38,838 nucleotides of DNA from a virus (IMGVR_UViG_2531839130_000015); one strand, 5' to 3'. Counted from the stretch's first letter, positions 8,662 through 37,127 are shown. Notes: generated by a model not told the origin, from the sequence alone. Made by a program: numbers and translations.

Positions 8662-9414
8662 ATGAAAGGAGGCATAAATTTGGATACTAACAGTCCATTA
8701 ATTGAAGTCGAGCAGAACACTTCAGACATATATATTCCGTTGCAAGCCTGGTTCGAGGGGAGAAAATTCCTTTCACACAGATTTTCGGGCCAAAACTGTA
8801 GTGATAATCCATCAAGTGATTGGGAGGCTTGGTTATCAATACAGGAATGCTGTCCTCTCCATCAGGTCAATAGTCTTAACTGGGTCGGACTGCATGAAGC
8901 CAGGAAAAATACAGATTCATTCTTGGGGAATGTGAAGAGTGAATTTAATGGAAAGCTTCCCATTTTTATTCATGAAAAGGAGAGGGTGATAATCGAAAAA
9001 AAAATCGGCATTCCTCCCAAACCCTCATTACCAATCTATTTAATATCATGCTCTGATATGGATGATACCAATGAACACATTGTTTATGTCGGAAAAACCG
9101 TTAACTCCAAAAGGTTTATTGGCGGTCACTCGGCTGCCTTAAAGTTGCTAGATCCCAAATATAATAATATGAAAAAGAGGATATATAGAGCCACCCCATG
9201 GTTTTATGATGGAAAAGACTATATTTCACTGGATTGGATTAGTCCGACATCATTAGCTATAGAATTACTTGACTTTATAGAGTCTCATCTTATTTACAAT
9301 CTCAAGCCGGAACTCAACACATCGAAGAAAAAAAATGAAGATACACGTTATTCTTTTTATCTTCACATTCAGAACTTTTTATCAACAGGCTTTCTTAATG
9401 ATGAGTTTATTTAA
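8662..9414 (+). CDS. AT-rich cargo protein with a C-terminal GIY-YIG nuclease-like domain and an unknown N-terminal domain (about 244-250 aa)
   Basis: PIYLISCSDMDDTNEHIVYVGKTVNSKRFIGGH fits the GIY...YVG(K/S)(A/T)...R...H pattern of I-TevI/UvrC-type domains, with a downstream IESHLIYN...N segment consistent with the catalytic Glu/Asn. Strong AAGGAGG Shine-Dalgarno at about 8666..8672 suggests the real start may be TTG at about 8680 rather than ATG at 8662. Occupies the P2 Z/fun position. Confidence 0.6.
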   Translation: MKGGINLDTNSPLIEVEQNTSDIYIPLQAWFEGRKFLSHRFSGQNCSDNPSSDWEAWLSIQECCPLHQVNSLNWVGLHEARKNTDSFLGNVKSEFNGKLPIFIHEKERVIIEKKIGIPPKPSLPIYLISCSDMDDTNEHIVYVGKTVNSKRFIGGHSAALKLLDPKYNNMKKRIYRATPWFYDGKDYISLDWISPTSLAIELLDFIESHLIYNLKPELNTSKKKNEDTRYSFYLHIQNFLSTGFLNDEFI

Positions 9415-9789: not shown

Positions 9790-11325
9790 CTAATTCGGCC
9801 TTGCTTGAATAGCAGACTCTATAGCTGCTCGGAATTCCGGGGCATCAGTTCTTAATCGATAATCATCAAGGGTATTGAATATTTCTAGAAGTTCTCTACG
9901 ATAATGCAGCGGTGCTGAATTACCTTCGCCTCTAGTGGTGAAAATTAATAATGAGTCAGCGACGTCTTTTAATTTTTTATTCCTTTTCAACCTAATATAA
10001 CAAGATACAACTATATCAAGAATATGCTTTCTAGATTTCAAGGTGAGTTTATTATTAGGCATAACCAACTGCAGCATAGCACCAAGTAATTTGGTAGCCT
10101 CTTTTGAAATATAATGAAGATCGAAATTATCTATTTCTTTATTTTCTTGAGGAATCTCCTTTTCATCTATCCATTCGCATTGTTCTGCCCAATCTGTAGC
10201 GACGCTAAATAAATGACAGAGAAGGAAGTGAAAAGGTGTTTCCCATTCACCACTATATTCATCTGATTGCCTATTCATATTCTTTATAATTTTCCTTGCG
10301 AAATATGAATAGTAATGCAACCATAAATGATCCTGAAGACCCTGGTGAATACCTTCATGAACCATAATTTCAAACAGCGTGACACCTGAGTAAATAGGAC
10401 ATTTATATTTTGAAGCATCGTAATAGGAACCTAAAGACTTATTAAGTGCAGCAATAATTTTTTCATCTTCATCTAACCTCCAGTAGAGATAGTCACCGAT
10501 ATCACGGTATATTGCTAAATCAGCTGCAAACTTAGCATTGGAAAAGAAAAAATGTAATATACGGTTGTTTTTTGGAATCAATAAACGATGTCCTCGACTA
10601 ACGTTAAGATTATTTTTAAGCTCAACATATAGACGACTGTTAGGTGAACCAAGTAATGCACTGATAAAATTAGAAGTAAAGTCAGAACGAACTATTGGCT
10701 CGATCTTGATTAACTCAAGGCAGAGGGATGGGTGCGCAAGTGCAAAGTGATTGGTAAGTTCAGGTGATGAGACAATATTTAACAATGCTTCATGTGCATG
10801 TTCAGCAGCTGTCTCGCGATTAGAGATGCGGAGATTGTTAGCTATCTTATCACAAAGTCGATTCTTCACAGGTCTATCAATTATTGATATTAATTTTTCT
10901 AGTTGAGGTGCCAACAATTGTGCCAGATCGTCGTATCGTTTAGTAAGGTGCAAATTTTCCACTAACTCTAGAAATATCCCTGTTCTTCCAATTGAGAGTT
11001 TAGGGTTTTTTAAGCGAAATGAAATGTAAATAGCAACTGCGAGTGATATCAGGTATACGGCACTTGAACTATCTAATCCCCATTTCCAGGGGCCAAAGCT
11101 AAAATATAAGTCTAGTGATTTTAAAGCCGGTGCAAACACCAAATAATTGCTTAGTAAGAATGCAAACCCAACAATTACCCAATCCCACCACGCTAGGCAG
11201 AACCTTAAACGTAGTCGAGCGTTTGGCGTAATAAGGGCCCATACAGCAGCAATAACGCCCAATATGGTAAGTAGACTTGATGTATCAATTTTGGTTGGCG
11301 GTGTCATAATTTCTCTTGTAATCAT
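9790..11325 (-). CDS. AT-rich cargo membrane protein (511 aa): about three N-terminal TM helices plus a large soluble domain with an HExxHxxxxxH motif; function unknown
   Basis: Hydrophobic segments LLTILGVIAAVWALI, WVIVGFAFLLSNYLVFAPAL, AVYLISLAVAIYISF; motif VHEGIHQGLQDH resembles zinc-metallopeptidase HExxH/metzincin spacing; no P2 backbone gene of this kind recalled; convergent with the upstream GIY-YIG gene. Confidence 0.6.
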   Translation of the reverse strand: MITREIMTPPTKIDTSSLLTILGVIAAVWALITPNARLRLRFCLAWWDWVIVGFAFLLSNYLVFAPALKSLDLYFSFGPWKWGLDSSSAVYLISLAVAIYISFRLKNPKLSIGRTGIFLELVENLHLTKRYDDLAQLLAPQLEKLISIIDRPVKNRLCDKIANNLRISNRETAAEHAHEALLNIVSSPELTNHFALAHPSLCLELIKIEPIVRSDFTSNFISALLGSPNSRLYVELKNNLNVSRGHRLLIPKNNRILHFFFSNAKFAADLAIYRDIGDYLYWRLDEDEKIIAALNKSLGSYYDASKYKCPIYSGVTLFEIMVHEGIHQGLQDHLWLHYYSYFARKIIKNMNRQSDEYSGEWETPFHFLLCHLFSVATDWAEQCEWIDEKEIPQENKEIDNFDLHYISKEATKLLGAMLQLVMPNNKLTLKSRKHILDIVVSCYIRLKRNKKLKDVADSLLIFTTRGEGNSAPLHYRRELLEIFNTLDDYRLRTDAPEFRAAIESAIQARPN

Positions 11326-16944: not shown

Positions 16945-17688
16945 ATGGATAAATATCAAATCTGGGAAAATCAAAAAGACACCATCGCCCACCAAGAGTA
17001 TTTAAAAATCTCCGACACCAATTTACTTGGACATATGCATATTGCCAATTACGAAGTTGTCCAACATGAATTAAGCAAATTCAACTCCCCTGACATTGTT
17101 TCCCGTCATTCATTTAACAGAGACAAATTTAAAAAAGAACATTTAAACATATCAAGACACCTTTTCAATTATATATCTTCAGCATTATCATTTAGAGATT
17201 CAACGCGCAACCTACTTAAAACAAAAGCATTAAATATTGCCGACATTAAAATCAAATCAGAGGCATTCATCAATCATGAATTCCGAAATAATCCAGTAAT
17301 AAAATTAATGGAGGATTTAAGAAACATCCTGACGCATCAAAACATGATCGCCCCATCAATATCATCATTCATGCACCTCCAAAGAAATATAAACATGCAC
17401 GGCTTTTCATTTAAGATTGAAAGAATCTTAAACAATGACAGAACCACCAAACAAACAAAAGAATATTTAATCTCACTAAAGCAAAAAAACTTATTCATTT
17501 TACCGATAATAGAAGAATACCAATACACGACTCTTAAGTATCAACACTGGCTTTTAGCAAGTATCTACACTGTTCATCAAGATACTTACCAAGAATACTG
17601 GAATGCGAGAAAAAACATCATGAACGAATGGGGAGGAGACACTCAGCTAATACCTAAAGAGAGTGAGCTCACTTATTTAACCAGATAA
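16945..17688 (+). CDS. AT-rich cargo protein (247 aa), unknown function, with an R-N-x3-H (HEPN-like) motif
   Basis: Clean ORF with AAGGAA Shine-Dalgarno; inserted between V and S and divergent from V; motif LRNILTHQN; no confident family assignment. Confidence 0.55.
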   Translation: MDKYQIWENQKDTIAHQEYLKISDTNLLGHMHIANYEVVQHELSKFNSPDIVSRHSFNRDKFKKEHLNISRHLFNYISSALSFRDSTRNLLKTKALNIADIKIKSEAFINHEFRNNPVIKLMEDLRNILTHQNMIAPSISSFMHLQRNINMHGFSFKIERILNNDRTTKQTKEYLISLKQKNLFILPIIEEYQYTTLKYQHWLLASIYTVHQDTYQEYWNARKNIMNEWGGDTQLIPKESELTYLTR

Positions 17689-18538: not shown

Positions 18539-19288
18539 TCACTGATCTCCTTCGGTCAACGGAGATTGTATTTTCCGCATTGATTCTCCTTTAAGTTCGA
18601 TCTTGATACTGCCATGAACCAGTCGATCTAGGATGGCATCCGCATGTGTGGAGTCTCCGATCATTTTGTACCAGTTTTCCACCGGCAACTGGCTCACTAC
18701 GATGATTGAGCCTCGTTGGTACATCAGATCCACTATTTCCAGCAGGTCGCTACGCTGTTCTGATGAGAGAGGTTCCAGCCCCCAGTCATCCAGAAGCAGC
18801 AGATCGCTATTATTCAGCCTGGTCAAAAGTTTGCTGTATCTTCCATCAGCATGCCCCTGATAGCACTGTTCCATCAGCGCTTTAAGGCGATAATAGTAGA
18901 CCTTGTATCCCTGTCGGCAGGCATTATGACCAAGTGCACATGCCAGGAACGTTTTACCGCTGCCGGTGGCCCCGGTCAGTAAAATATTTTGTTTCAGGGT
19001 TAACCAGTTTCCCTGACTGAGTGAACGGATGAGGGCCCTGTCCAGCCCTCTATTGTTACGATAATCCAGCTTTGATAACTCAGCATTAAGTCTGAACCGT
19101 GCATGTTTGATCAGACGCTCTGCCTTCCTGTTTTCACGGCAGGTTAGTTCTTCTGCTGTCAGTAATGACAGGCGTTCTTCGAAGCCCAGCTCCTGGTATG
19201 TGCCCGGTTGAGCAAGTTGCTTTTTAAGCGCATCACGGAAGCCGGTGAGTTTAAGTGCGGTCAGTTGTTCGTAAAGATGATTCATCAT
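18539..19288 (-). CDS. istB: IS21-family helper ATPase IstB (249 aa)
   Basis: Walker A LLTGATGSGKT and Walker B LLLLDDWG, DnaC-like AAA+ architecture typical of IstB. Confidence 0.85.
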   Translation of the reverse strand: MMNHLYEQLTALKLTGFRDALKKQLAQPGTYQELGFEERLSLLTAEELTCRENRKAERLIKHARFRLNAELSKLDYRNNRGLDRALIRSLSQGNWLTLKQNILLTGATGSGKTFLACALGHNACRQGYKVYYYRLKALMEQCYQGHADGRYSKLLTRLNNSDLLLLDDWGLEPLSSEQRSDLLEIVDLMYQRGSIIVVSQLPVENWYKMIGDSTHADAILDRLVHGSIKIELKGESMRKIQSPLTEGDQ

Positions 19289-19299
19289 TGGATCCCGTA

Positions 19300-20841
19300 T
19301 CAGTGGTAATACTCACTGCCGCGTACGTTTTCGTGTTCCATCGTGGATAACAGATCTGGTTTTGGATCCTGAACAGGTTGTTTATCCAGACCTTTTTCCA
19401 GGATCGATTTAATACCTGACAGACGCCATACCTTTGTTTTCAGAGCTCTTGCACATGCTGCATTAAGTCTGGCTTTACTGTATTTTTTATGAAGGTTCAG
19501 GAGTCCAAGGCAGAAGCGATAGCTTTGTTCCGGATGTGGACGAGAGTTCAGTATATGAAGCACATAACTATGAGTTTCACTGCCTATGTGCCCCGCCCAT
19601 TCCAGAAGACGCTCTGGCGTCCAGGTGGCATGCTGTCGATGAGCTTCAGGCATGTGCTCGTTGCGGGTACTGTAGCCATAAGTACGCTTGCGCGGGTGCA
19701 CAGCAACCTCCTGCCCCTGATTGAAGAGTCTTACCAGTTCTCCGGAGATCCATGCTTCCAGTTGCTGGCCTAACAGCGAACATGGAACCGAGTAGTAATG
19801 TTTGTCGATTTCCACGTGGTAATCGGCATGAACTCTGACTTTCTTCACCAGGGTGTAACTGTAACTGGCTTCAGGAAGAGGCTTCAGTGCGGGTTTATCA
19901 AGCTGGATGAAGAGTTCTGCACGTGAATAACCCAACTTCTGCATTATTTTGTTATTCAGTCTTTCCAGCAACTCCCGAATGCGCTGATTAAGCGATGCAA
20001 GGCTGTAGAAGATCTCATGCCTGATTCGGGCCATGATCCAGCGTTCAACAACCTGAACGCCAACTTCAGCTTTGGCTTTATCTTTCGGTTTACGTGGCCG
20101 CGCAGGCAAAACTGCGACATTATAATGCTCAAGCATCTGCTGGTAGGTAGGGTTAACGTCAGGATCATACTTACATGCCCTGGATGTGGCGCTTTTCAGA
20201 TTGTCCGGAACAACAAGTTCAGGAACGCCACCCAACCACTGGAAGCAGCGAACATGACTCATCACCCAGTCTTCAGGCTGCTGAGACCAGGTGGCCTCTG
20301 CCCATGTGTAACTTGATGCCCCGAGAACAGCTACGATGACCTGAGCAGTTCTTATTTCTCCGGTCTCAGGGTCGGTAACGCCAACGGTAGGTCCACAGTA
20401 ATCAACGAAAAGTTTTTCGCCAGCTTTATGTACCTGACGCATTGATGGTGAAGTGGTTTTGAGCCATTCACGGTACATCCGGCAGTAATGGTTATAGCTG
20501 TAAAAACCGCCTGGATTACGCTCACAGTATTCTTCCCAGAGTAGCTGCAGCGTCACGCATTTATTACGCAGTTCCCGGTGTACTGTAGCCCAGTCAGGCA
20601 GAGAGTGCTTCTTCATCTTAACCTGGGTCTGAAGGAACGCATGTTTTAGTTTTGTATCATCCCATCCTGTAGGTAAGGGCCACTGCTTTATGCCAAGTTG
20701 AGCCGCCCGATTAGCATATCTGGATACAACGGAAGGGGAGATTGCAAGACTACGACCAATTTGTCGATGGCTGAGTCCAACACCGTATTTAAGCCTAAGA
20801 ATTTCTTTAAGTTTTCTCATAGAAATTGGAACTGTTGGCAT
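19300..20841 (-). CDS. istA: IS21-family transposase IstA (513 aa)
   Basis: N-terminal HTH plus integrase-like core, directly upstream of istB in the same orientation; family recognised by recall, specific IS name not assigned. Confidence 0.8.
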   Translation of the reverse strand: MPTVPISMRKLKEILRLKYGVGLSHRQIGRSLAISPSVVSRYANRAAQLGIKQWPLPTGWDDTKLKHAFLQTQVKMKKHSLPDWATVHRELRNKCVTLQLLWEEYCERNPGGFYSYNHYCRMYREWLKTTSPSMRQVHKAGEKLFVDYCGPTVGVTDPETGEIRTAQVIVAVLGASSYTWAEATWSQQPEDWVMSHVRCFQWLGGVPELVVPDNLKSATSRACKYDPDVNPTYQQMLEHYNVAVLPARPRKPKDKAKAEVGVQVVERWIMARIRHEIFYSLASLNQRIRELLERLNNKIMQKLGYSRAELFIQLDKPALKPLPEASYSYTLVKKVRVHADYHVEIDKHYYSVPCSLLGQQLEAWISGELVRLFNQGQEVAVHPRKRTYGYSTRNEHMPEAHRQHATWTPERLLEWAGHIGSETHSYVLHILNSRPHPEQSYRFCLGLLNLHKKYSKARLNAACARALKTKVWRLSGIKSILEKGLDKQPVQDPKPDLLSTMEHENVRGSEYYH

Positions 20842-29990: not shown

Positions 29991-31313
29991 TTAGTTTGTT
30001 TTTTTAACTCCACTGTATTCCGCTATCATCCTCTCAACCGCTGGAAGCAACTCAGCAGGAACGCAAATAGACCTATCTGCCTTTCCAACATCTTTTGGCG
30101 TTTTGTAAGTACCATTATAATTAAGGACGCATTCTTTAAGAATTTCAAAAAGAGAAACAATAGGGTCCACGCCATAGCTATCAATAAACTTTCGATAGCT
30201 ATCATTATCAGATAACGATGAAATATCTCCATGAACAAACTTACACCTAAGCTCATAGATTATTCCTATTTTTGAATCAATATCAATAATTTTCGCCGCA
30301 TCTCTGCAAACACCGCCAACAATTGAATTTTTATTACCATTATTGGTTCCATACATAGCATCCAATGCTATAAATTGATTCAAAAACCTTTCACGTTTGT
30401 CATCCCTCCACCCGTGCGCTATAAAGGAAAGAGCAGACAACATCCTTTTATCAGGTGATGAAAGTATTTTTGTAAGTATCGCCAAGGCTGAATCCGTTAT
30501 ATTTAAATTATATACAGACGGAATATTCACCCGAAACTCACTTTCATGATATTTCCCGACACCAAAAGACTCAACTAGATTATTAACAGCAACTCGATTA
30601 ATCGCAAAAGGATTATCAACCGCAAGACATAAAGCTCCAAACAAACTATCAAACATTTTCACCGCTTTATCCTCTGATGAAGCATATGCCACCACCAAGC
30701 AGGATTTTGACTGTCGAAAATATTTCCCAATTGGTTTATGCCGCATATATTCATCATCATAAAAATCAACAGGAACCTTGATGTCAGTTTTGTCTTTAAT
30801 ATCAGAAAGTAATTCCACCCCTAGCCCCGGGCCATATAAAAATAAATTTTCTCTAAGCTCAAGCTTCCCATCAAAGCCAGCACACCCAAGATTATAAATA
30901 TACGGACAGGATTTTATTCGTGAAAGTATATAATACTTAAACATCTCACTAAGATTTTTTCTATGAACTTGCGTTATAATATCATCAACACAAATCTTAT
31001 CAGGATTAAGCGACAGAAAATCAGCATCAATGCGATTGAAGGCTTCAGAACAAAAACCTAACAATAATCTTTTCGCATTGTGAAGGTCACTTATACCTAA
31101 TTGGGGGCCATATGCTTTTAATAACCTACTAGCACATTTTGCAATCTCCTCATCATTATATGCAAGCCAAAAAACAAAATCTTCTAATGCTTTACCGACT
31201 TGAATACAAGGCTGCTCCTTACCATGACTATAAAAAAAACTTTTGCATAATTTGTTTATCATGCCATTAGAGAACGCAACCTTCATAGATACTTCATCCC
31301 TTAACGCACTCAT
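29991..31313 (-). CDS. AT-rich cargo protein (440 aa), unknown function, at the P2 orf91/tin/old position; possible C-terminal HEPN-like R-x4-H motif
   Basis: Clean ORF with AAGGA Shine-Dalgarno about 9 nt upstream; same orientation as gene A, between A and cos; motif ELRCKFVHGD; no Walker or other catalytic motif recognised. Confidence 0.6.
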   Translation of the reverse strand: MSALRDEVSMKVAFSNGMINKLCKSFFYSHGKEQPCIQVGKALEDFVFWLAYNDEEIAKCASRLLKAYGPQLGISDLHNAKRLLLGFCSEAFNRIDADFLSLNPDKICVDDIITQVHRKNLSEMFKYYILSRIKSCPYIYNLGCAGFDGKLELRENLFLYGPGLGVELLSDIKDKTDIKVPVDFYDDEYMRHKPIGKYFRQSKSCLVVAYASSEDKAVKMFDSLFGALCLAVDNPFAINRVAVNNLVESFGVGKYHESEFRVNIPSVYNLNITDSALAILTKILSSPDKRMLSALSFIAHGWRDDKRERFLNQFIALDAMYGTNNGNKNSIVGGVCRDAAKIIDIDSKIGIIYELRCKFVHGDISSLSDNDSYRKFIDSYGVDPIVSLFEILKECVLNYNGTYKTPKDVGKADRSICVPAELLPAVERMIAEYSGVKKTN

Positions 31314-31396: not shown

Positions 31397-33670
31397 TTAA
31401 GAAAACATCACCCAGTCGTCTTTTACAGCATAACTAAACCGCTCACCGTCATAAATTACTGTTGCCCCGCGCGCCAACGCCTCAAGCTCCCATCGCTGCG
31501 GCCTGATACCGTTCTGAGCAAGGTCAACGCGGATACGGGTAATTTGCATTCTTTCCGACCGGGTCAGTCTGGCCGATGGTGCAATTTCATGTGGTTTTAA
31601 CGGGCTTCCGTTTCTTTGCTGACGATTTGGCGTTCTCAGGCCGTGTTTTAATGCGCCCCTGAGCGCCCTAACAACCTCCGGGTCATTCCATTCTATAACC
31701 CCGTCATCAACCAGATTAAGCACTGCTGCAGCGTGCTCAGACGGTGTGGGAGCCTGTAATGAAGTATCACCACCGGTGAGCTTTCCACAGTTATTGACAG
31801 GACTCCGAGGCGCGGCGATGCCGCTTTTTAAAGTCAAAGGCTCAACGACCGGAACTTTCGGAACAATGCGCCAGTCCGTCGTTCTGGTGATATGAATATG
31901 ACGCGCGCCGAGATGCGGCGCGTAAATGCCGACCACTCTCTCGACTTCTTCCTCGTACTCGTTAACTTCATCCGACGGGCTACGGGCAACCCTGACAGTC
32001 TGACAATCGCGCGGGACATTTGCCCCACCCTGCGCGCTGATATACAACGCAAAATCACCACTGTCTGCGGCGGCGCGTGCAGCCTCGACGCGCTCGTCAA
32101 ACTCATCAGCAATGCTGACGCCGCTAGGCAATTTGCGTAGTTCACGGTAAGCCCCCATTGTCGGCAGGCCAACCGTTTTAAATTGTGGGATACGCCACGT
32201 TGACGCCCATGCGGTAACAGCCGCTGCAGTATCTTTCAGCGGCTTGCCGGTATCGTTATCGAGCTGACCATCCAGTGCATAGCCGTCGATGTTTTTTGAA
32301 ATGTATTTCGCGATATACCCCGCAGCACCGCCCCGGTTAAGATGTTTTGCCTGAAAACGGTTTCGCGCAGCTCCTCTTTCGTCGCCATCCTCTTTGAGCG
32401 CGTAGCGACGCATGATTTCAATAATCTGGTTACGCTGGCGTGGATTACAAAAAAGCATCATATGCCAGTGCGGCGTTCCGTCGTGGTGTGGCTCGACGAC
32501 TCGCAAACCGTAGACCTGTAAATCATTATCCTTGAATGCCGTGCGCATCAGGCTCCAGATACGGCAGAGATATCGCTGCGCATCCTTTGGATTAAATGCC
32601 TCATCATTCCAGCCGTGATTAAGCTGGACGGTTTTACTTTCGCCTTTTCCGACCTGACGTGTCGGGTGATACTTTGACGGCGCGGTCAGCGTGATAAACA
32701 TCCCCACATCGCCCTCTGCGGCGGCGTAACGCTCAATACCGGCAATGGTGTTCATCAGCTCCATCCGGCGAATTTCAGGATTAGAAATACTGCCCATCAC
32801 CTTACTGATAAGGTCGATGCGCTCGCCGGTTTCCCTGTTTTCAAGGTCACACGATTTAAGAAATTCCAGATTTGCCTGGCGGCGCGCACGCACATCACGA
32901 ATGGCATGTTTACTGGCATAAGGAGAACGGTCTTTATTCACCTCCCCGACAGCAATCAGTAACGCCTCATGCCAGCGCATACGCTGGCCTTTAAGCTGAC
33001 TAATCCACCACTCATCGTTAAACAGGCGGGCAATGGCAGAATATGCCTGCCTCGTGGTCATCTGTCCTTTACGGTATTTTTTCCAGAAAAGCGGGGAAAT
33101 ATTGAAAGCACGTGCAGCGCCAGCAACATGACCATACAGATGCGCCTGCGCCTCATCTGTAAACAGCGATTCTTTCTCGCCATGTGCATCAACCCAGGCA
33201 TCGCAGAGTTCCTCATACATCATGAAAAGCTGCGATGAAATACGGGCGGCAAACTTTTTCAGCTCCTTGTCATTCATCCCCGGCAGACGCGCATAATGGT
33301 CACGCTCTGCCAGAAACAGCAACGACGCGTCGGTGTTCATTTCATGGCGCTGATTCACGCGCTCAATACGCGGCCATAAACGGCGCTGAAAAGTGGATGT
33401 GAGGAAATAAAACCCGTGTAGCGGGCTTTTATTGCGCCGTATGTAGTCATAACGTGAAGTAAACAGCGAGCGCAAAAAGTAAGGCAGGCGGTTAATCGTG
33501 GATAAAACACCTTGCACCTGACGCATCTCGTCACGTGTAAGGGGTCTTTCGCGCCCGACAGCCTCGCGTGGCGTATTCCATGCATAAGCACCGGTAAACG
33601 CCTTACCGGTGCCTGCGGCAAACGCAGACGGAGGTACGCAGGTGTATTGCTCCTGGAAAGAATGACTCAT
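31397..33670 (-). CDS. A: Replication initiation endonuclease A (757 aa)
   Basis: Sequence matches recalled P2 gpA (rolling-circle initiator, about 761 aa). Confidence 0.9.
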   Translation of the reverse strand: MSHSFQEQYTCVPPSAFAAGTGKAFTGAYAWNTPREAVGRERPLTRDEMRQVQGVLSTINRLPYFLRSLFTSRYDYIRRNKSPLHGFYFLTSTFQRRLWPRIERVNQRHEMNTDASLLFLAERDHYARLPGMNDKELKKFAARISSQLFMMYEELCDAWVDAHGEKESLFTDEAQAHLYGHVAGAARAFNISPLFWKKYRKGQMTTRQAYSAIARLFNDEWWISQLKGQRMRWHEALLIAVGEVNKDRSPYASKHAIRDVRARRQANLEFLKSCDLENRETGERIDLISKVMGSISNPEIRRMELMNTIAGIERYAAAEGDVGMFITLTAPSKYHPTRQVGKGESKTVQLNHGWNDEAFNPKDAQRYLCRIWSLMRTAFKDNDLQVYGLRVVEPHHDGTPHWHMMLFCNPRQRNQIIEIMRRYALKEDGDERGAARNRFQAKHLNRGGAAGYIAKYISKNIDGYALDGQLDNDTGKPLKDTAAAVTAWASTWRIPQFKTVGLPTMGAYRELRKLPSGVSIADEFDERVEAARAAADSGDFALYISAQGGANVPRDCQTVRVARSPSDEVNEYEEEVERVVGIYAPHLGARHIHITRTTDWRIVPKVPVVEPLTLKSGIAAPRSPVNNCGKLTGGDTSLQAPTPSEHAAAVLNLVDDGVIEWNDPEVVRALRGALKHGLRTPNRQQRNGSPLKPHEIAPSARLTRSERMQITRIRVDLAQNGIRPQRWELEALARGATVIYDGERFSYAVKDDWVMFS

Positions 33671-34674
33671 TCACATACACCGGCATAGACACTACTGCAA
33701 ACGGCTTTATCATTCGCCGAAGCCAGTAAATCAAACTGAGTACCCCCACGCGTTGTCATTGTCCAGTCATGGTAGGTTTCAATTCCGTATGCCTCGACTG
33801 TTACAACCTCAATACGACGTTCTGCGCGTAACGGATCATGTGTGGATGGGAAAAAAGTGGAATTTCCCCGACGGGAGCACGACGCAACCAGTCGTTCCCA
33901 TTCAGCAACCCGCTTTATTTCCTCCGGCCACCGGCGAAAAATTTCTGCCAGTTCAGATTTACGGACATGAATACATGGCATACAACCAACACGGCCACAC
34001 CCCTGCTGATATAACGGATTTGGCTTAATGTCATGTCTTCTGGCTATTGCAAATACATCTTCATGCTTCCAGTGCAAAATCGGGCGATATACATGCAATC
34101 CGGGGGTGTTGTCTGCATCCTCTTCCCAGACAGGTAAAGCTGCGCGTGATGGCGATTCCTGAGCACGCACTCCCTGCCAGCTAATCACTTCCTCAAATTC
34201 ATTGAGTAAAGGCAGGATTACCTGAGAACGCACGGGTTCATGTTTCAGTTCAAATGTGCAAAATCTGGCTTTGGTTGATGGGAAACGCCCCTTCCACAGA
34301 CACAAATCAAGAAACGGGATACCCGTTGGTTTGAGAATTTCCAGCGCACAACTGATGCGCTGGTGCGCTTCTTCTTCCGACATTCCACAATCGTTAACCA
34401 ACAAATCAGGCCATTTGGTCTGGATAAACTTGCGCTTTGATTCAATCCGGCAGGAAAAATCAGCCCTGACCCTTTTAATTGGGCCAAGCCGTTTTTCCAG
34501 ATAATCCAGATATTTCATTGTCTGTGGATGTTCATGTCCCGTATCAGCAAAAACCGGCAATATGGGTACATTTTCTTCAATAGCGACAAGCCACTGAGCA
34601 AGGCTGTCCTTTCCACCTGAAACAAAAATAACATTGATGGTATTTTCAGTATGGCAACGAGCATCAGTAATCAT
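33667..34674 (-). CDS. PAPS-reductase-like PP-loop ATP pyrophosphatase family protein (335 aa) with a C-terminal Cys cluster
   Basis: PP-loop motif VIFVSGGKDSLA; cysteine cluster GCGRVGCMPC; stop overlaps the ATG of gene A. Confidence 0.7.
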   Translation of the reverse strand: MITDARCHTENTINVIFVSGGKDSLAQWLVAIEENVPILPVFADTGHEHPQTMKYLDYLEKRLGPIKRVRADFSCRIESKRKFIQTKWPDLLVNDCGMSEEEAHQRISCALEILKPTGIPFLDLCLWKGRFPSTKARFCTFELKHEPVRSQVILPLLNEFEEVISWQGVRAQESPSRAALPVWEEDADNTPGLHVYRPILHWKHEDVFAIARRHDIKPNPLYQQGCGRVGCMPCIHVRKSELAEIFRRWPEEIKRVAEWERLVASCSRRGNSTFFPSTHDPLRAERRIEVVTVEAYGIETYHDWTMTTRGGTQFDLLASANDKAVCSSVYAGVCE

Positions 34675-34949
34675 TCAGACGCTCCTCTGGAGAACGCCTC
34701 TGAACAACGCTTGCTGAGCTGCTCAACCTGCGTGTTTAAATCGGCAAAAGATTTTGCGCTTCCGGTCAGAATATCGTGATGCATCAGGCCGGAAACGAGC
34801 TGGCTTAATTTCGGATAATAACCAACCACCGCCAGCCATTCCTGACCGGCGTTTTTACCGCTTTCCGCTCTCTTTTTCTCGTGGAGAATAAACTGAAAGC
34901 TGTCACTGGTAACGACATAACGTTCGCCAATTTCAATACGAATACTCAT
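34671..34949 (-). CDS. Early-operon small protein (92 aa), function unknown
   Basis: Overlapping start/stop coupling within the B-to-A early operon. Confidence 0.5.
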   Translation of the reverse strand: MSIRIEIGERYVVTSDSFQFILHEKKRAESGKNAGQEWLAVVGYYPKLSQLVSGLMHHDILTGSAKSFADLNTQVEQLSKRCSEAFSRGASE

Positions 34950-35170
34950 GCCGTTCTCCGGTAATGCTTGTTTTTTGCTTCAAAGACTGACTGGCAGGAA
35001 ACACAACGCGTGGCTGACGGATAAGCCGCACGACGGGCAGCAGGTATTGGCGCGTCACACTCTTCGCAAACCAGCGCAGAAACACCGCAATGTTTTACCC
35101 TTGCCGCGTTAATCTGGCGCTCCAGTAATTCAGCCTGTTGTTCCTGAATAAAATCTACGTTGTCCGGCAT
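34946..35170 (-). CDS. DksA/TraR-family C4 zinc-finger protein (74 aa)
   Basis: CxxC...CxxC pattern (CEECDAPIP...CVSCQ) typical of TraR-like proteins; similar protein recalled in the P2 early operon. Confidence 0.7.
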   Translation of the reverse strand: MPDNVDFIQEQQAELLERQINAARVKHCGVSALVCEECDAPIPAARRAAYPSATRCVSCQSVFEAKNKHYRRTA

Positions 35171-35475
35171 TACCAGCTCCTTTTGTCGTTCAGCTTCTTA
35201 AATTCATCAGCGCAATAACTGGCGATTTCTGTCGTTAATTTCGTCAGTTCATCCACTGAGGAAATTTGCTTGTGGAATACAGCGCGTTTAACAAGTAAAT
35301 TGACCACATCAGACAGGAGGTTTAATTCATTCTGATAAATCGCGATAACAGATTCAGTGATGTCGCGTTTTTCTTTATCAAGACAAAGTTGAATAAGAGA
35401 CAAATCACCATTTTCCATAACGGCGATTTTTAAGGCGTTATTCAGTAATACAACTGAATGAGAACAGGACATCAA
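35170..35475 (-). CDS. Early-operon small protein (101 aa), function unknown
   Basis: Translationally coupled ORF in the early operon. Confidence 0.5.
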
Positions 35476-35729
35476 AGTACCTCCCCGCGAGACAATCCGA
35501 TATTGTGAAATTTTTCCGACTCCTGACTGAGCAGCTCAACTATCTCCACGCGGGATAACTCCGCCTTTGTGATGTGGCGAATCATGGCGTCAAGATGAGA
35601 AGAAAAGCGCGTCGCCGCGTCGGCCTGTGCTTCGGTTCTGGCCTGTTGCAGCAGTAATGCGTATTTACCGCACTGATTTTCAGAAACTGTATGCATGACT
35701 TTCTCCAGGCAAAAAGAAGCCCCGCACAA
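35472..35729 (-). CDS. Early-operon small protein (85 aa), function unknown
   Basis: Translationally coupled ORF in the early operon. Confidence 0.5.
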
Positions 35730-35759
35730 TTAAGTGCGTTAAAAACTCTGGTTAATTAC

Positions 35760-36266
35760 TTAATGCAGATATTGCTCTGGTTTTACCGACGTCAGAATTG
35801 TCGGTGCATACTCAAACAGGCTGAATAATTCACGTAATGCACGGAATAAAGCATCACGCCAGTAACATGACTCTTCATTAATTCGCCAGTATGGCTGGTT
35901 GAATTCTTTTTCAGTCAATCCGGCATGCATAAATAAAGTACGACGCTGACTGACTGTTAAAAAACTAATATATGCATACTCACTTGCACCGACCTGACGG
36001 CGTTTTGAGAATGCCCCACGCAATTCATCAATTGCACAAACCAGCCGTTCACGTTCGACGTCGTTCATTTCTTCAAAACGCATCGTTGCGTGACGTTGTT
36101 TTAACTGCGCATGAAAGCAAACTGTTAGCCGTTCGCGCTCCATCATCTGATTATAATAATCACATGTATCCTGCCAGCGAGGAACGGCAAGATGCTTACC
36201 AATTATCCGGCGCATGGTTGCTGGCTGTTTTTCAACGAGATTGAGCGTCATCACTGTCATTTCCAT
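35760..36266 (-). CDS. B: Replication protein B (helicase loader), about 166-168 aa
   Basis: MTVMTLNLVEKQPA.MRRIIGKHLAVPRWQDTCDYYNQMMERERLTV matches recalled P2 gpB; true start may be 2 codons downstream of the track start. Confidence 0.85.
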   Translation of the reverse strand: MEMTVMTLNLVEKQPATMRRIIGKHLAVPRWQDTCDYYNQMMERERLTVCFHAQLKQRHATMRFEEMNDVERERLVCAIDELRGAFSKRRQVGASEYAYISFLTVSQRRTLFMHAGLTEKEFNQPYWRINEESCYWRDALFRALRELFSLFEYAPTILTSVKPEQYLH

Positions 36267-36713: not shown

Positions 36714-36827
36714 GTCGTCCCCCAGCCCTCATGAATTGCGTTTAATGCCTTATAATGCCTTTTAGTGCCCACATCCAAGCACTAAACAATCTACATCTAA
36801 ACTAAATACTATTGAGATCTAAACACT
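36714..36827. promoter_or_regulatory. Immunity switch region: divergent early (cox side) and lysogenic (C side) promoters with direct-repeat operator half-sites
   Basis: ATCTAAAC occurs twice in direct orientation about 22 bp apart (acATCTAAACtaaatactattgagATCTAAACac), consistent with P2 C-repressor operators. Confidence 0.65.
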
Positions 36828-37127
36828 ATGTCAAACACGATAAGCGAGAAGATAGTCTTAATGCGAAAATCAGAGTATTTGAGCAGACAACAACTTGCTG
36901 ATTTAACAGGGGTACCGTATGGCACGCTGAGTTACTATGAAAGTGGTCGTTCAACACCTCCAACAGATGTCATGATGAACATCCTGCAGACCCCACAATT
37001 CACCAAATACACTTTATGGTTCATGACCAATCAGGTCGCTCCTGAGTCCGGGCAAATTGCGCCCGCTCTCGCACACTTTGGGCAAAACGAAACAACGTCG
37101 CCCCACTCCGGTCAAAAGACTGGTTAA
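36828..37127 (+). CDS. C: Immunity repressor C (99 aa)
   Basis: MSNTISEKIVLMRKSEYLSRQQLADLTGVPYGTLSYYESGRS matches recalled P2 C. Confidence 0.9.
   Translation: MSNTISEKIVLMRKSEYLSRQQLADLTGVPYGTLSYYESGRSTPPTDVMMNILQTPQFTKYTLWFMTNQVAPESGQIAPALAHFGQNETTSPHSGQKTG

Follow-up and report, generated by a model that had tools for sequence, protein, structure and literature searches.

Does a phage gene that databases name phosphoadenosine phosphosulfate (PAPS) reductase serve sulfur metabolism, or does it act on DNA? The question is raised by a virus-derived stretch of DNA of 38,838 nucleotides (IMGVR_UViG_2531839130_000015, analyzed over its whole length and hereafter called the window), in which a minus-strand open reading frame (ORF; 33667..34674) encodes a PAPS-reductase-family protein of 335 amino acids (aa) immediately upstream of the replication gene A of a P2-type prophage. 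The original prediction, made from sequence alone, had read the product as a PP-loop protein related to the Dnd and Ssp enzymes of DNA sulfur modification, coupled in its translation to gene A, and had entertained both DNA modification and a metabolic moron as possible roles. The ORF is a real, conserved phage gene and not a chance reading frame, almost certainly the homologue of orf84 of phage 186, and its product is probably an ATP-dependent enzyme with iron-sulfur (Fe-S)-type cysteines. Phage-borne PAPS reductases are commonly counted as auxiliary genes for sulfur assimilation; the sequence of this family, which comprises 5,826 clusters at 90% identity (E up to 1e-5), argues otherwise.

The protein is 76.6% identical to Orf84 of phage 186 over residues 2-335 (GenBank U32222, AAC34185.1). 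Its best phage match is found in Yersinia phage P37 (81.5% identity), and PHROG 424 is matched with E = 8.6e-86. In 186 and in Eganvirus and Peduovirus relatives such as P37 the gene has the same length and occupies the same slot directly upstream of A, with overlapping stop and start, and in the 186 group it is preceded by the same DUF5405 gene as in the window. Full-length similarity and this slot thus place it in the 186 Orf84 group and in PHROG 424. The window departs from 186, however, in having a P2-type backbone (C/Cox immunity region and P2 gene A) and in carrying the gene on a 1,061-bp segment that P2 itself lacks. RefSeq lists an identical protein from E. coli genomes as phosphoadenosine phosphosulfate reductase domain-containing protein. 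What we describe is therefore no new feature, but a long-annotated orf84-type gene. The 186 record lists Orf84 as non-essential and of unknown function (U32222); a known replication role, named in the original prediction as a finding that would speak against it, is thus not what is on record. The literature searched (on orf84, IbrA/IbrB, PAPS reductases paired with ParB and those of leading regions) yielded no functional study of the family, and the orf84-type gene goes unmentioned in the Eganvirus paper.

At about 70% or more nucleotide identity, orf84-type genes occur in 68 of 5,426 complete E. coli genomes, 30 of which carry a copy at least 99% identical to that of the window, while a P2-type gene A is present in 1,725 of the same genomes. 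The orf84-type gene is, in other words, a rare accessory gene in E. coli. The protein is under strong purifying selection: for orf84-type genes, the median ratio of nonsynonymous to synonymous substitution rates (dN/dS, or omega) comes to 0.042, as calculated from 289 pairs with dS between 0.1 and 1.5.

Classification by profile models, which the original prediction had proposed as a check, gives a clear match to the family and scores short of the curated models of individual enzymes. Pfam PF01507 is matched at 121 bits (E = 5e-35) against a cut-off of 22.5, and the SGGKDS string at residues 19-24 (34603..34620, on the minus strand like all features below for which no strand is given) conforms to the intact SGGxDS of PP-loop ATP pyrophosphatases, the motif that binds the alpha-phosphate of ATP. 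The curated models of individual enzymes all score below their cut-offs: PRK02090 (67.4 vs 154 bits), TIGR00434 (46.7 vs 165.1) and TIGR02057 (39.9 vs 254.2) for CysH, TIGR02055 for adenosine phosphosulfate (APS) reductase (53.1 vs 235.3) and the DndC equivalog TIGR03183 (21.3 vs 290.4). The alignments of the NCBIfam CysH, APS-reductase and DndC models are moreover confined to residues ~130-260. The protein is not a canonical CysH, APS reductase or DndC. The profiles of the PADLOC defense collection, on the other hand, bear out the kinship to Dnd and Ssp enzymes. The SspD profile, which has no curated cut-off, scores 74.3 bits (E = 3e-21) in a partial match of residues 127-282 to positions 73-216 of 277; BrxP scores 45 bits, also partially (positions 212-336 of a 779-position profile), and DndC 29 bits. 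All 65 aligned family members match SspD (best E = 6.5e-32), 64 match BrxP and 50 match DndC. Judged by these profiles, SspD is the nearest defense-system relative of the orf84-type protein.

Such kinship does not extend to the genomic setting. The neighbors are P2 early genes and gene A, not dndA, dndD or dndE; no sspA, sspB or sspC lies near the gene, and four unassigned ORFs of the window have no PADLOC match. In type 4 BREX, BrxP combines a PAPS-reductase domain with DUF4007 (PMC12839542), and no BREX context of this fused or linked kind is present at the locus. An N-terminal fusion domain, suggested by ~150 unmatched positions of the PHROG 424 profile, was considered and rejected, 10 longer representatives showing PF01507 only.

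The residues that the family preserves, as gauged from 86 representatives and from a 65-sequence alignment, outline a putative active site. Every position of the PP-loop (S19, G20, G21, K22, D23 and S24) is at least 87% conserved in the representatives, and G21 and S24 are invariant in the alignment, as are D44 and E48 of a DTGxE motif (34531..34545) in which T45 and G46 are conserved too. Cys139 (34258..34260), within an RFCTxELK motif, is 100% conserved. In the GVRxxESxxR loop that runs from G168 to R177 (34144..34173), G168, R170, E173, S174 and R177 are conserved in at least 95% of the representatives, and in the Cys231-x-x-Cys234 pair (33973..33984) the two cysteines reach 100% and 97%. 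Cys334, the penultimate residue, is 97% conserved and invariant in the alignment. C125 (83%) and C326 (79%) are also frequent, and D123, K144, N219, L221, Y222, V229, G230, P233, G332 and E335 complete the set of conserved positions. The coordinates of the gene, its SGGKDS loop and its CGRVGCMPC string are all as the original prediction gave them, but the reading of that string as a C-terminal cysteine cluster holds only in part. The string does occupy residues 226-234, yet this is about two thirds along the protein, and only C231 and C234 are conserved; C226 is kept in just 3% of the representatives, the usual residue being Met. The true pattern consists of the conserved CxxC together with C139 and the C-terminal cysteine, and both C139 and C334 had been overlooked. 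The C-terminal Cys334-Glu335 (33670..33675) is a family trait in its own right: 80 of 81 close homologues, including that of the window, end exactly in Cys-Glu (77 in AGVCE and 3 in AGICE), and so do 29 of 34 diverse homologues, mostly as YGLCE. We know of no earlier description of this terminal motif.

Searches of the PDB set these residues against those of solved enzymes. The AlphaFold model built from the 65-sequence alignment, which replaced a single-sequence model with a predicted local distance difference test score (pLDDT) of 32, attains a pLDDT of 94.1 and a predicted template-modeling score of 0.91, with the C-terminal tail at pLDDT 62-78. Its best solved matches are CysH and APS reductases; the searches, made by sequence and by fold, returned no solved structure of DndC, SspD or the orf84 family, nor any match to the last ~100 residues, which form a C-terminal domain of the protein's own, ending in Cys-Glu and with no solved or named relative. 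The APS reductases of P. aeruginosa (2GOY) and M. tuberculosis (7LHR) and the CysH structures 1SUR and 6VPU share the DTG motif and the Arg loop, the GLRREQSxSRA of CysH aligning with the GVRxxESxxR of the window protein. C231 and C234 align with the cluster-binding CxxC of the APS reductases (GCEPC in 2goy, GCAPC in 7lhr), at positions where the cluster-free CysH has no cysteine, and from its fixed offset to K144 we infer that C139 corresponds to the first cysteine of their CC pair. The window protein has C139-T140 where the APS reductases have that pair, and hence three of the four positions of their CC...CxxC signature, with T140 in place of the second paired cysteine. The nucleotide-binding loop differs as well, for these reductases lack a functional PP-loop and do not use ATP: where the window protein has SGGKDS, CysH of V. 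vulnificus has SSSFG and APS reductase SFSGAED. A degenerate P-loop and the ECGLH motif are defining features of CysH. ECGLH is absent here, the protein ending in ...YAGVCE, and although a reactive cysteine on a C-terminal tail is a design idea common to the reductases and the window protein, the tail cysteine of CysH and the Cys-Glu end are alike in concept and not in sequence. As side observations, the family profile also weakly matches the PDB chain 21fy_C (PptA; E = 5e-5, profile positions 182-246), a protein whose identity was not found in the literature, and the QueC-like Cap9 of CBASS (chain 9nto_B; E = 2e-5).

The combination of an intact PP-loop, Fe-S-type cysteines and a tail cysteine points to an ATP-dependent enzyme. 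By alignment, C139, C231 and C234 probably hold an Fe-S cluster and C334 is a candidate functional cysteine, on a tail whose lower pLDDT would fit mobility. A PP-loop with cluster cysteines and a tail cysteine is the design of DndC/SspD, TtuA/NcsA and LarE. Enzymes of the TtuA/NcsA/LarE type, to which the model shows structural similarity, have a three-cysteine cluster with an open iron site and proceed by adenylation followed by sulfur insertion, a course that the orf84-type protein is predicted by analogy to resemble. SspD, DndC and BrxP belong to the same Pfam family and have an intact PP-loop and cysteines consistent with an Fe-S cluster, and in DndC a cysteine of the [4Fe-4S] cluster is required for phosphorothioate modification (PMC11662687). 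The SspD and DndC systems, however, have partner subunits (SspA/B/C and DndA/D/E), and the window protein has none of these beside it.

The way in which the gene is embedded and expressed bears on its role as well. The window holds a P2-type prophage between host genes, with a peptidase U32 gene on the left and a yegR-like gene on the right; a sibling prophage in E. coli AH21I008 also adjoins yegR. Its early operon runs Pe, cox, orf78, B, orf80, orf81, orf82, orf83, the 335-aa gene and A, and outside the 335-aa gene, the only large insertion, it is 96.6% identical to that of phage P2. Relative to P2 (AF063097), a segment of 1,061 bp (33635..34695) replaces the ~40-bp orf83/A junction; it supplies a ribosome-binding site of its own, the complete ORF and codons 1-12 of A. 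Gene A itself (31397..33670, 757 aa), a rolling-circle nickase annotated as replication endonuclease, shares ~96% identity with its P2 counterpart from base 34 on. In most of the E. coli matches to gene A, similarity likewise sets in at base 34 or 37 of the window's copy, as would be expected from a replacement of this extent.

Expression of the gene appears to depend on a single promoter. A Pe-like early promoter (36806..36834; TTGACA-17-TAGTAT, 10/12 matches) lies where P2 has its Pe, in the interval that separates C from cox. Between it and the 335-aa gene, the coding strand has no sigma-70-like promoter except for one site inside B, and no promoter-like site was found on the minus strand in 34675-36150. 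Lacking a promoter of its own, the gene belongs to the repressor-controlled lytic operon, in agreement with its earlier assignment to an early replication operon. A lysogenic-conversion moron was rejected on the same grounds. Translation, in turn, is chained. The TGA of the gene (33669..33667) shares bases with the ATG of gene A (33670..33668) in an ATGA at 33667..33670, as had been noticed before, and no clear Shine-Dalgarno sequence precedes the ATG of A in the window; a GGAG Shine-Dalgarno sequence stands ~10 nt 5' of the ATG of the 335-aa gene. The proposed coupling agrees with this overlap and with the 186 record, which indicates that orf84 must apparently be translated right to its end for the A protein to be made (U32222). 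A second ATGA (34671..34674) joins the start of the 335-aa gene to the stop of the upstream orf83-like gene (34671..34949), which codes for a DUF5405 protein of 92 aa (PF17399, E = 4e-14) in the position of P2 Orf83. The early operon in fact contains two paralogous DUF5405 genes (34671..34949 and 35170..35475), the counterparts of orf83 and orf81, the former of which overlaps the start of the PAPS-family gene.

The company that orf84-type genes keep in other genomes is varied, and no universal partner gene was found among the loci examined. In phiE125 the order is methyltransferase, orf84-type gene, ParB-like gene and replication genes; in Rivra the gene stands between two methyltransferase genes, and in Parlo it is followed by one ORF and dam. 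A metagenomic contig carries an EcoRI methylase and, further along, a C5 methylase, an N6/N4 methylase and the orf84-type gene. A ParB-like gene adjoins the Riah homologue too, and such pairs mirror the pairing of dndB with dndC. Of the 80 closest viral loci, 68 have gene A downstream and 12 show no match to it. A gene for a Dam-class methyltransferase is found upstream on the same strand in 33 of the 80 and directly abuts in 22; after dereplication at 95% identity, dam is in the flank of 16 of 41 clusters and adjacent in 8. In the region ~1 kb upstream of the orf84-type gene, dam, where present, gives the order dam, orf84, A, and the N6-adenine Dam proteins are diverse (36-68% identical to the reference). 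In five lambdoid loci without gene A, a gene for a ParB helix-turn-helix (ParB-HTH) protein lies directly upstream and overlaps the start of the orf84-type gene; lambdoid phages that have no gene A encode proteins ~78% identical to that of the window. Across 34 dereplicated, more diverse viral loci, the flanks (same strand, up to two genes away) comprise 82 proteins, among them 10 DNA methyltransferases and a single Mom, most neighbors being generic early-region genes. The 148 more distant ORFs of these loci include two methyltransferases and one Mom, a background that covers the top 25 of 55 families and may in truth be somewhat higher, so that the fold-enrichment is uncertain.

Relatives are found beyond phages. 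The window protein matches 1,560 plasmid records, 1,135 of them conjugative. Conjugative plasmids of the IncC group encode a distant relative of 371 aa (WP_000946102.1), 26% identical over residues 132-328; on NZ_KY887596.1 (3728-4843 of the record) its gene lies ~1.5 kb from repA and ~3 kb from mobI. It shares the motif layout (LSGGKDS, RWCSSALK, SCMTC and a cysteine three residues from the C-terminus, ...EACGSD) and differs in its N-terminal part, its length and its plasmid location.

With the methyltransferase and ParB-like neighbors, and with the literature on phage counteraction of Dnd and Ssp systems, a role in DNA modification or anti-restriction, as originally proposed, seems plausible. 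In Vibrio, a gene that fuses a PAPS domain to Dam, moved together with one neighbor into a sensitive phage, conferred growth on a Dnd host (10.1101/2021.05.05.442762). The A. baumannii prophage DgiS1 carries an orphan sspD that is statistically associated with hosts having Ssp (PMC12421847), and PAPS reductases within anti-CRISPR-associated (acr-aca) operons have been proposed as anti-defense candidates (PMC13551039). The first of these cases, p0018 of the Vibrio crassostreae podoviruses (Piel et al.), is similar in that it links a phage-borne PF01507 domain to Dam, as the separate upstream dam does in 33 of the 80 close relatives.

The explanation that we tentatively prefer, at somewhat less than even odds, starts from an orf84 homologue carried on a 1.06-kb segment, which recombination has placed precisely between orf83 and gene A of a P2-type early operon. 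Transcribed only from the repressor-controlled Pe and translated within a chain of overlapping genes, the protein would be made at the onset of the lytic cycle, just before the nickase A. By analogy with DndC/SspD, TtuA and LarE, this stand-alone ATP pyrophosphatase might adenylate an oxygen on its substrate and then exchange that oxygen for sulfur, supplied either by the cluster or by a C334 persulfide, and ultimately by the host cysteine desulfurase IscS. Context and literature suggest phage DNA as the target, which would either be marked or be protected by hijacking or countering host phosphorothioate-based (Dnd/Ssp-type) or restriction defenses. For the last and most specific element, a DNA-directed role against host defenses rather than sulfate assimilation, our confidence is if anything slightly lower than for the explanation as a whole. 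A bolder version, which we consider unlikely, would make the orf84 family a self-contained, partner-free enzyme in which a single polypeptide, using ATP and an Fe-S cluster, inserts sulfur to mark newly replicating phage DNA with a phosphorothioate or a thio-base. Such an enzyme would need no DndD/E or SspB/C; it would receive sulfur from IscS via its Cys-Glu tail and be directed to DNA by a neighbor, be it Dam, a ParB-like protein or, in P2 and 186, the nick or single strand produced by gene A. If this were true, the phage would be immune to restriction of the Dnd/Ssp type or of other kinds.

Several observations weigh against a DNA-directed role. Orf84 of 186 is non-essential, and U32222 records no phenotype for it. 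To our knowledge, sulfur modification of 186 or P2 DNA has never been reported. No desulfurase, nickase or DNA-recognition subunit, or ATPase of the Dnd/Ssp kind was found in the window, which also has neither dam nor a parB-like gene. The DndC score is 21 against 290 bits, the SspD match is partial, and the methyltransferase enrichment derives from crude ORF calling as well as from an incompletely covered background. The Vibrio precedent is itself imperfect, for the PAPS domain of p0018 is short (~170 aa) and fused to Dam, and was transplanted as one of two genes, whereas the window protein has 335 aa and is unfused; the two are likened here by description. The searched literature yielded no experiment on the orf84 family.

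The chemistry proposed here could also be aimed at something other than DNA, such as tRNA in a thiolation reaction, a nucleotide or small molecule in immune signaling, or a protein. TtuA, ThiI, QueC and Cap9 of CBASS are PP-loop enzymes that act on targets of these kinds, and both the want of an obligatory DNA-handling partner in the window and the mostly generic early-region neighbors of the diverse loci would fit. The nearest relatives, however, are SspD, BrxP, DndC and CysH, the tRNA thiolases belonging to another Pfam family, and the gene recurs beside DNA methyltransferases and ParB-HTH proteins, for which reasons we hold a non-DNA target to be rather unlikely. Alternatively, the protein might work without catalysis, as a decoy that sequesters Dnd/Ssp components of the host or IscS and so blunts phosphorothioate-dependent immunity. 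Its homology to the sulfurtransferase subunit of these systems, its occurrence without the other subunits and the links reported between orphan PAPS/SspD genes and hosts that have Dnd or Ssp are all compatible with such a decoy. An intact ATP site would be needless in that role, and yet the PP-loop, the DTGxE motif, the Arg loop, the three cysteines and the C-terminal cysteine are near-invariant over 309 clusters at 50% identity (E up to 1e-30), with omega at 0.04; a decoy is therefore improbable.

A genuine assimilatory PAPS or APS reductase, acting as an auxiliary metabolic gene that raises the supply of sulfite and cysteine, is what the database names (phosphoadenosine phosphosulfate reductase, even cysH) and the PHROG category (moron, auxiliary metabolic gene) imply. 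The closest solved structures are indeed those of CysH and APS reductases, and other authors have read prophage PAPS reductases as sulfur-metabolism genes. Against this stand scores below every curated reductase cut-off, from models that align over about residues 130-260 only, an SGGKDS kept where reductases have a degenerate loop, a ...GVCE end in place of ECGLH, and expression only from the lytic early operon. E. coli, besides, already has cysH. We regard this alternative as very improbable, and the metabolic moron of the original prediction is unlikely with it, given the lack of an own promoter, the repressor-controlled operon and the shortfall on all CysH criteria. More generally, an intact ATP site, Fe-S-type cysteines, the Cys-Glu end, sub-cut-off scores, a place in the early operon and methyltransferase or ParB-like neighbors make the metabolic label doubtful. 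At the far end, the ORF could be a translated spacer that brings ribosomes to a weakly initiated gene A and whose protein has no function. The ATGA overlap, the poor ribosome-binding site of A and the dependence recorded for 186 (U32222) all suit this reading, but A is made in P2, and in ~96% of the P2-type prophages of E. coli, where no orf84-type gene is present. The purifying selection on the protein (omega 0.042), as well as homologues of similar identity in phages without gene A (12 of 80 loci), in unrelated phages and in plasmids, speak against it too, and a pure spacer, to which we give next to no credence, was rejected.

The DNA-directed role that we favor can be approached from an advantageous position. 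The question of DNA modification or anti-phosphorothioate activity by such proteins rests on one transplant in Vibrio and one statistical association (PMC12421847). Few temperate phages are as tractable as 186 and P2, and orf84 is non-essential, which makes the role of orphan SspD/DndC-like enzymes of phages and conjugative plasmids directly addressable.

The remainder of the prophage offers some observations of its own. An IS21-family insertion sequence lies within the late region (18539..20841) and encodes an IstA-like transposase of 513 aa (rve and Mu-transposase C domains) and an IstB of 249 aa (PF01695, E = 2e-67); the prophage is possibly inactive as a result. Three ORFs without Pfam or PADLOC match, of 511 aa (9790..11325, minus strand), 250 aa (8662..9414, plus strand) and 247 aa (16945..17688, plus strand), may be cargo at other variable sites of P2. 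Directly downstream of gene A, at the tin/old accessory hotspot of P2, lies a further ORF of 440 aa (29991..31313), for which searches of Pfam and PADLOC returned no match. The sibling prophage of E. coli AH21I008 has a retron Ec48 system at this very site, and the 440-aa ORF is hence a candidate defense gene.

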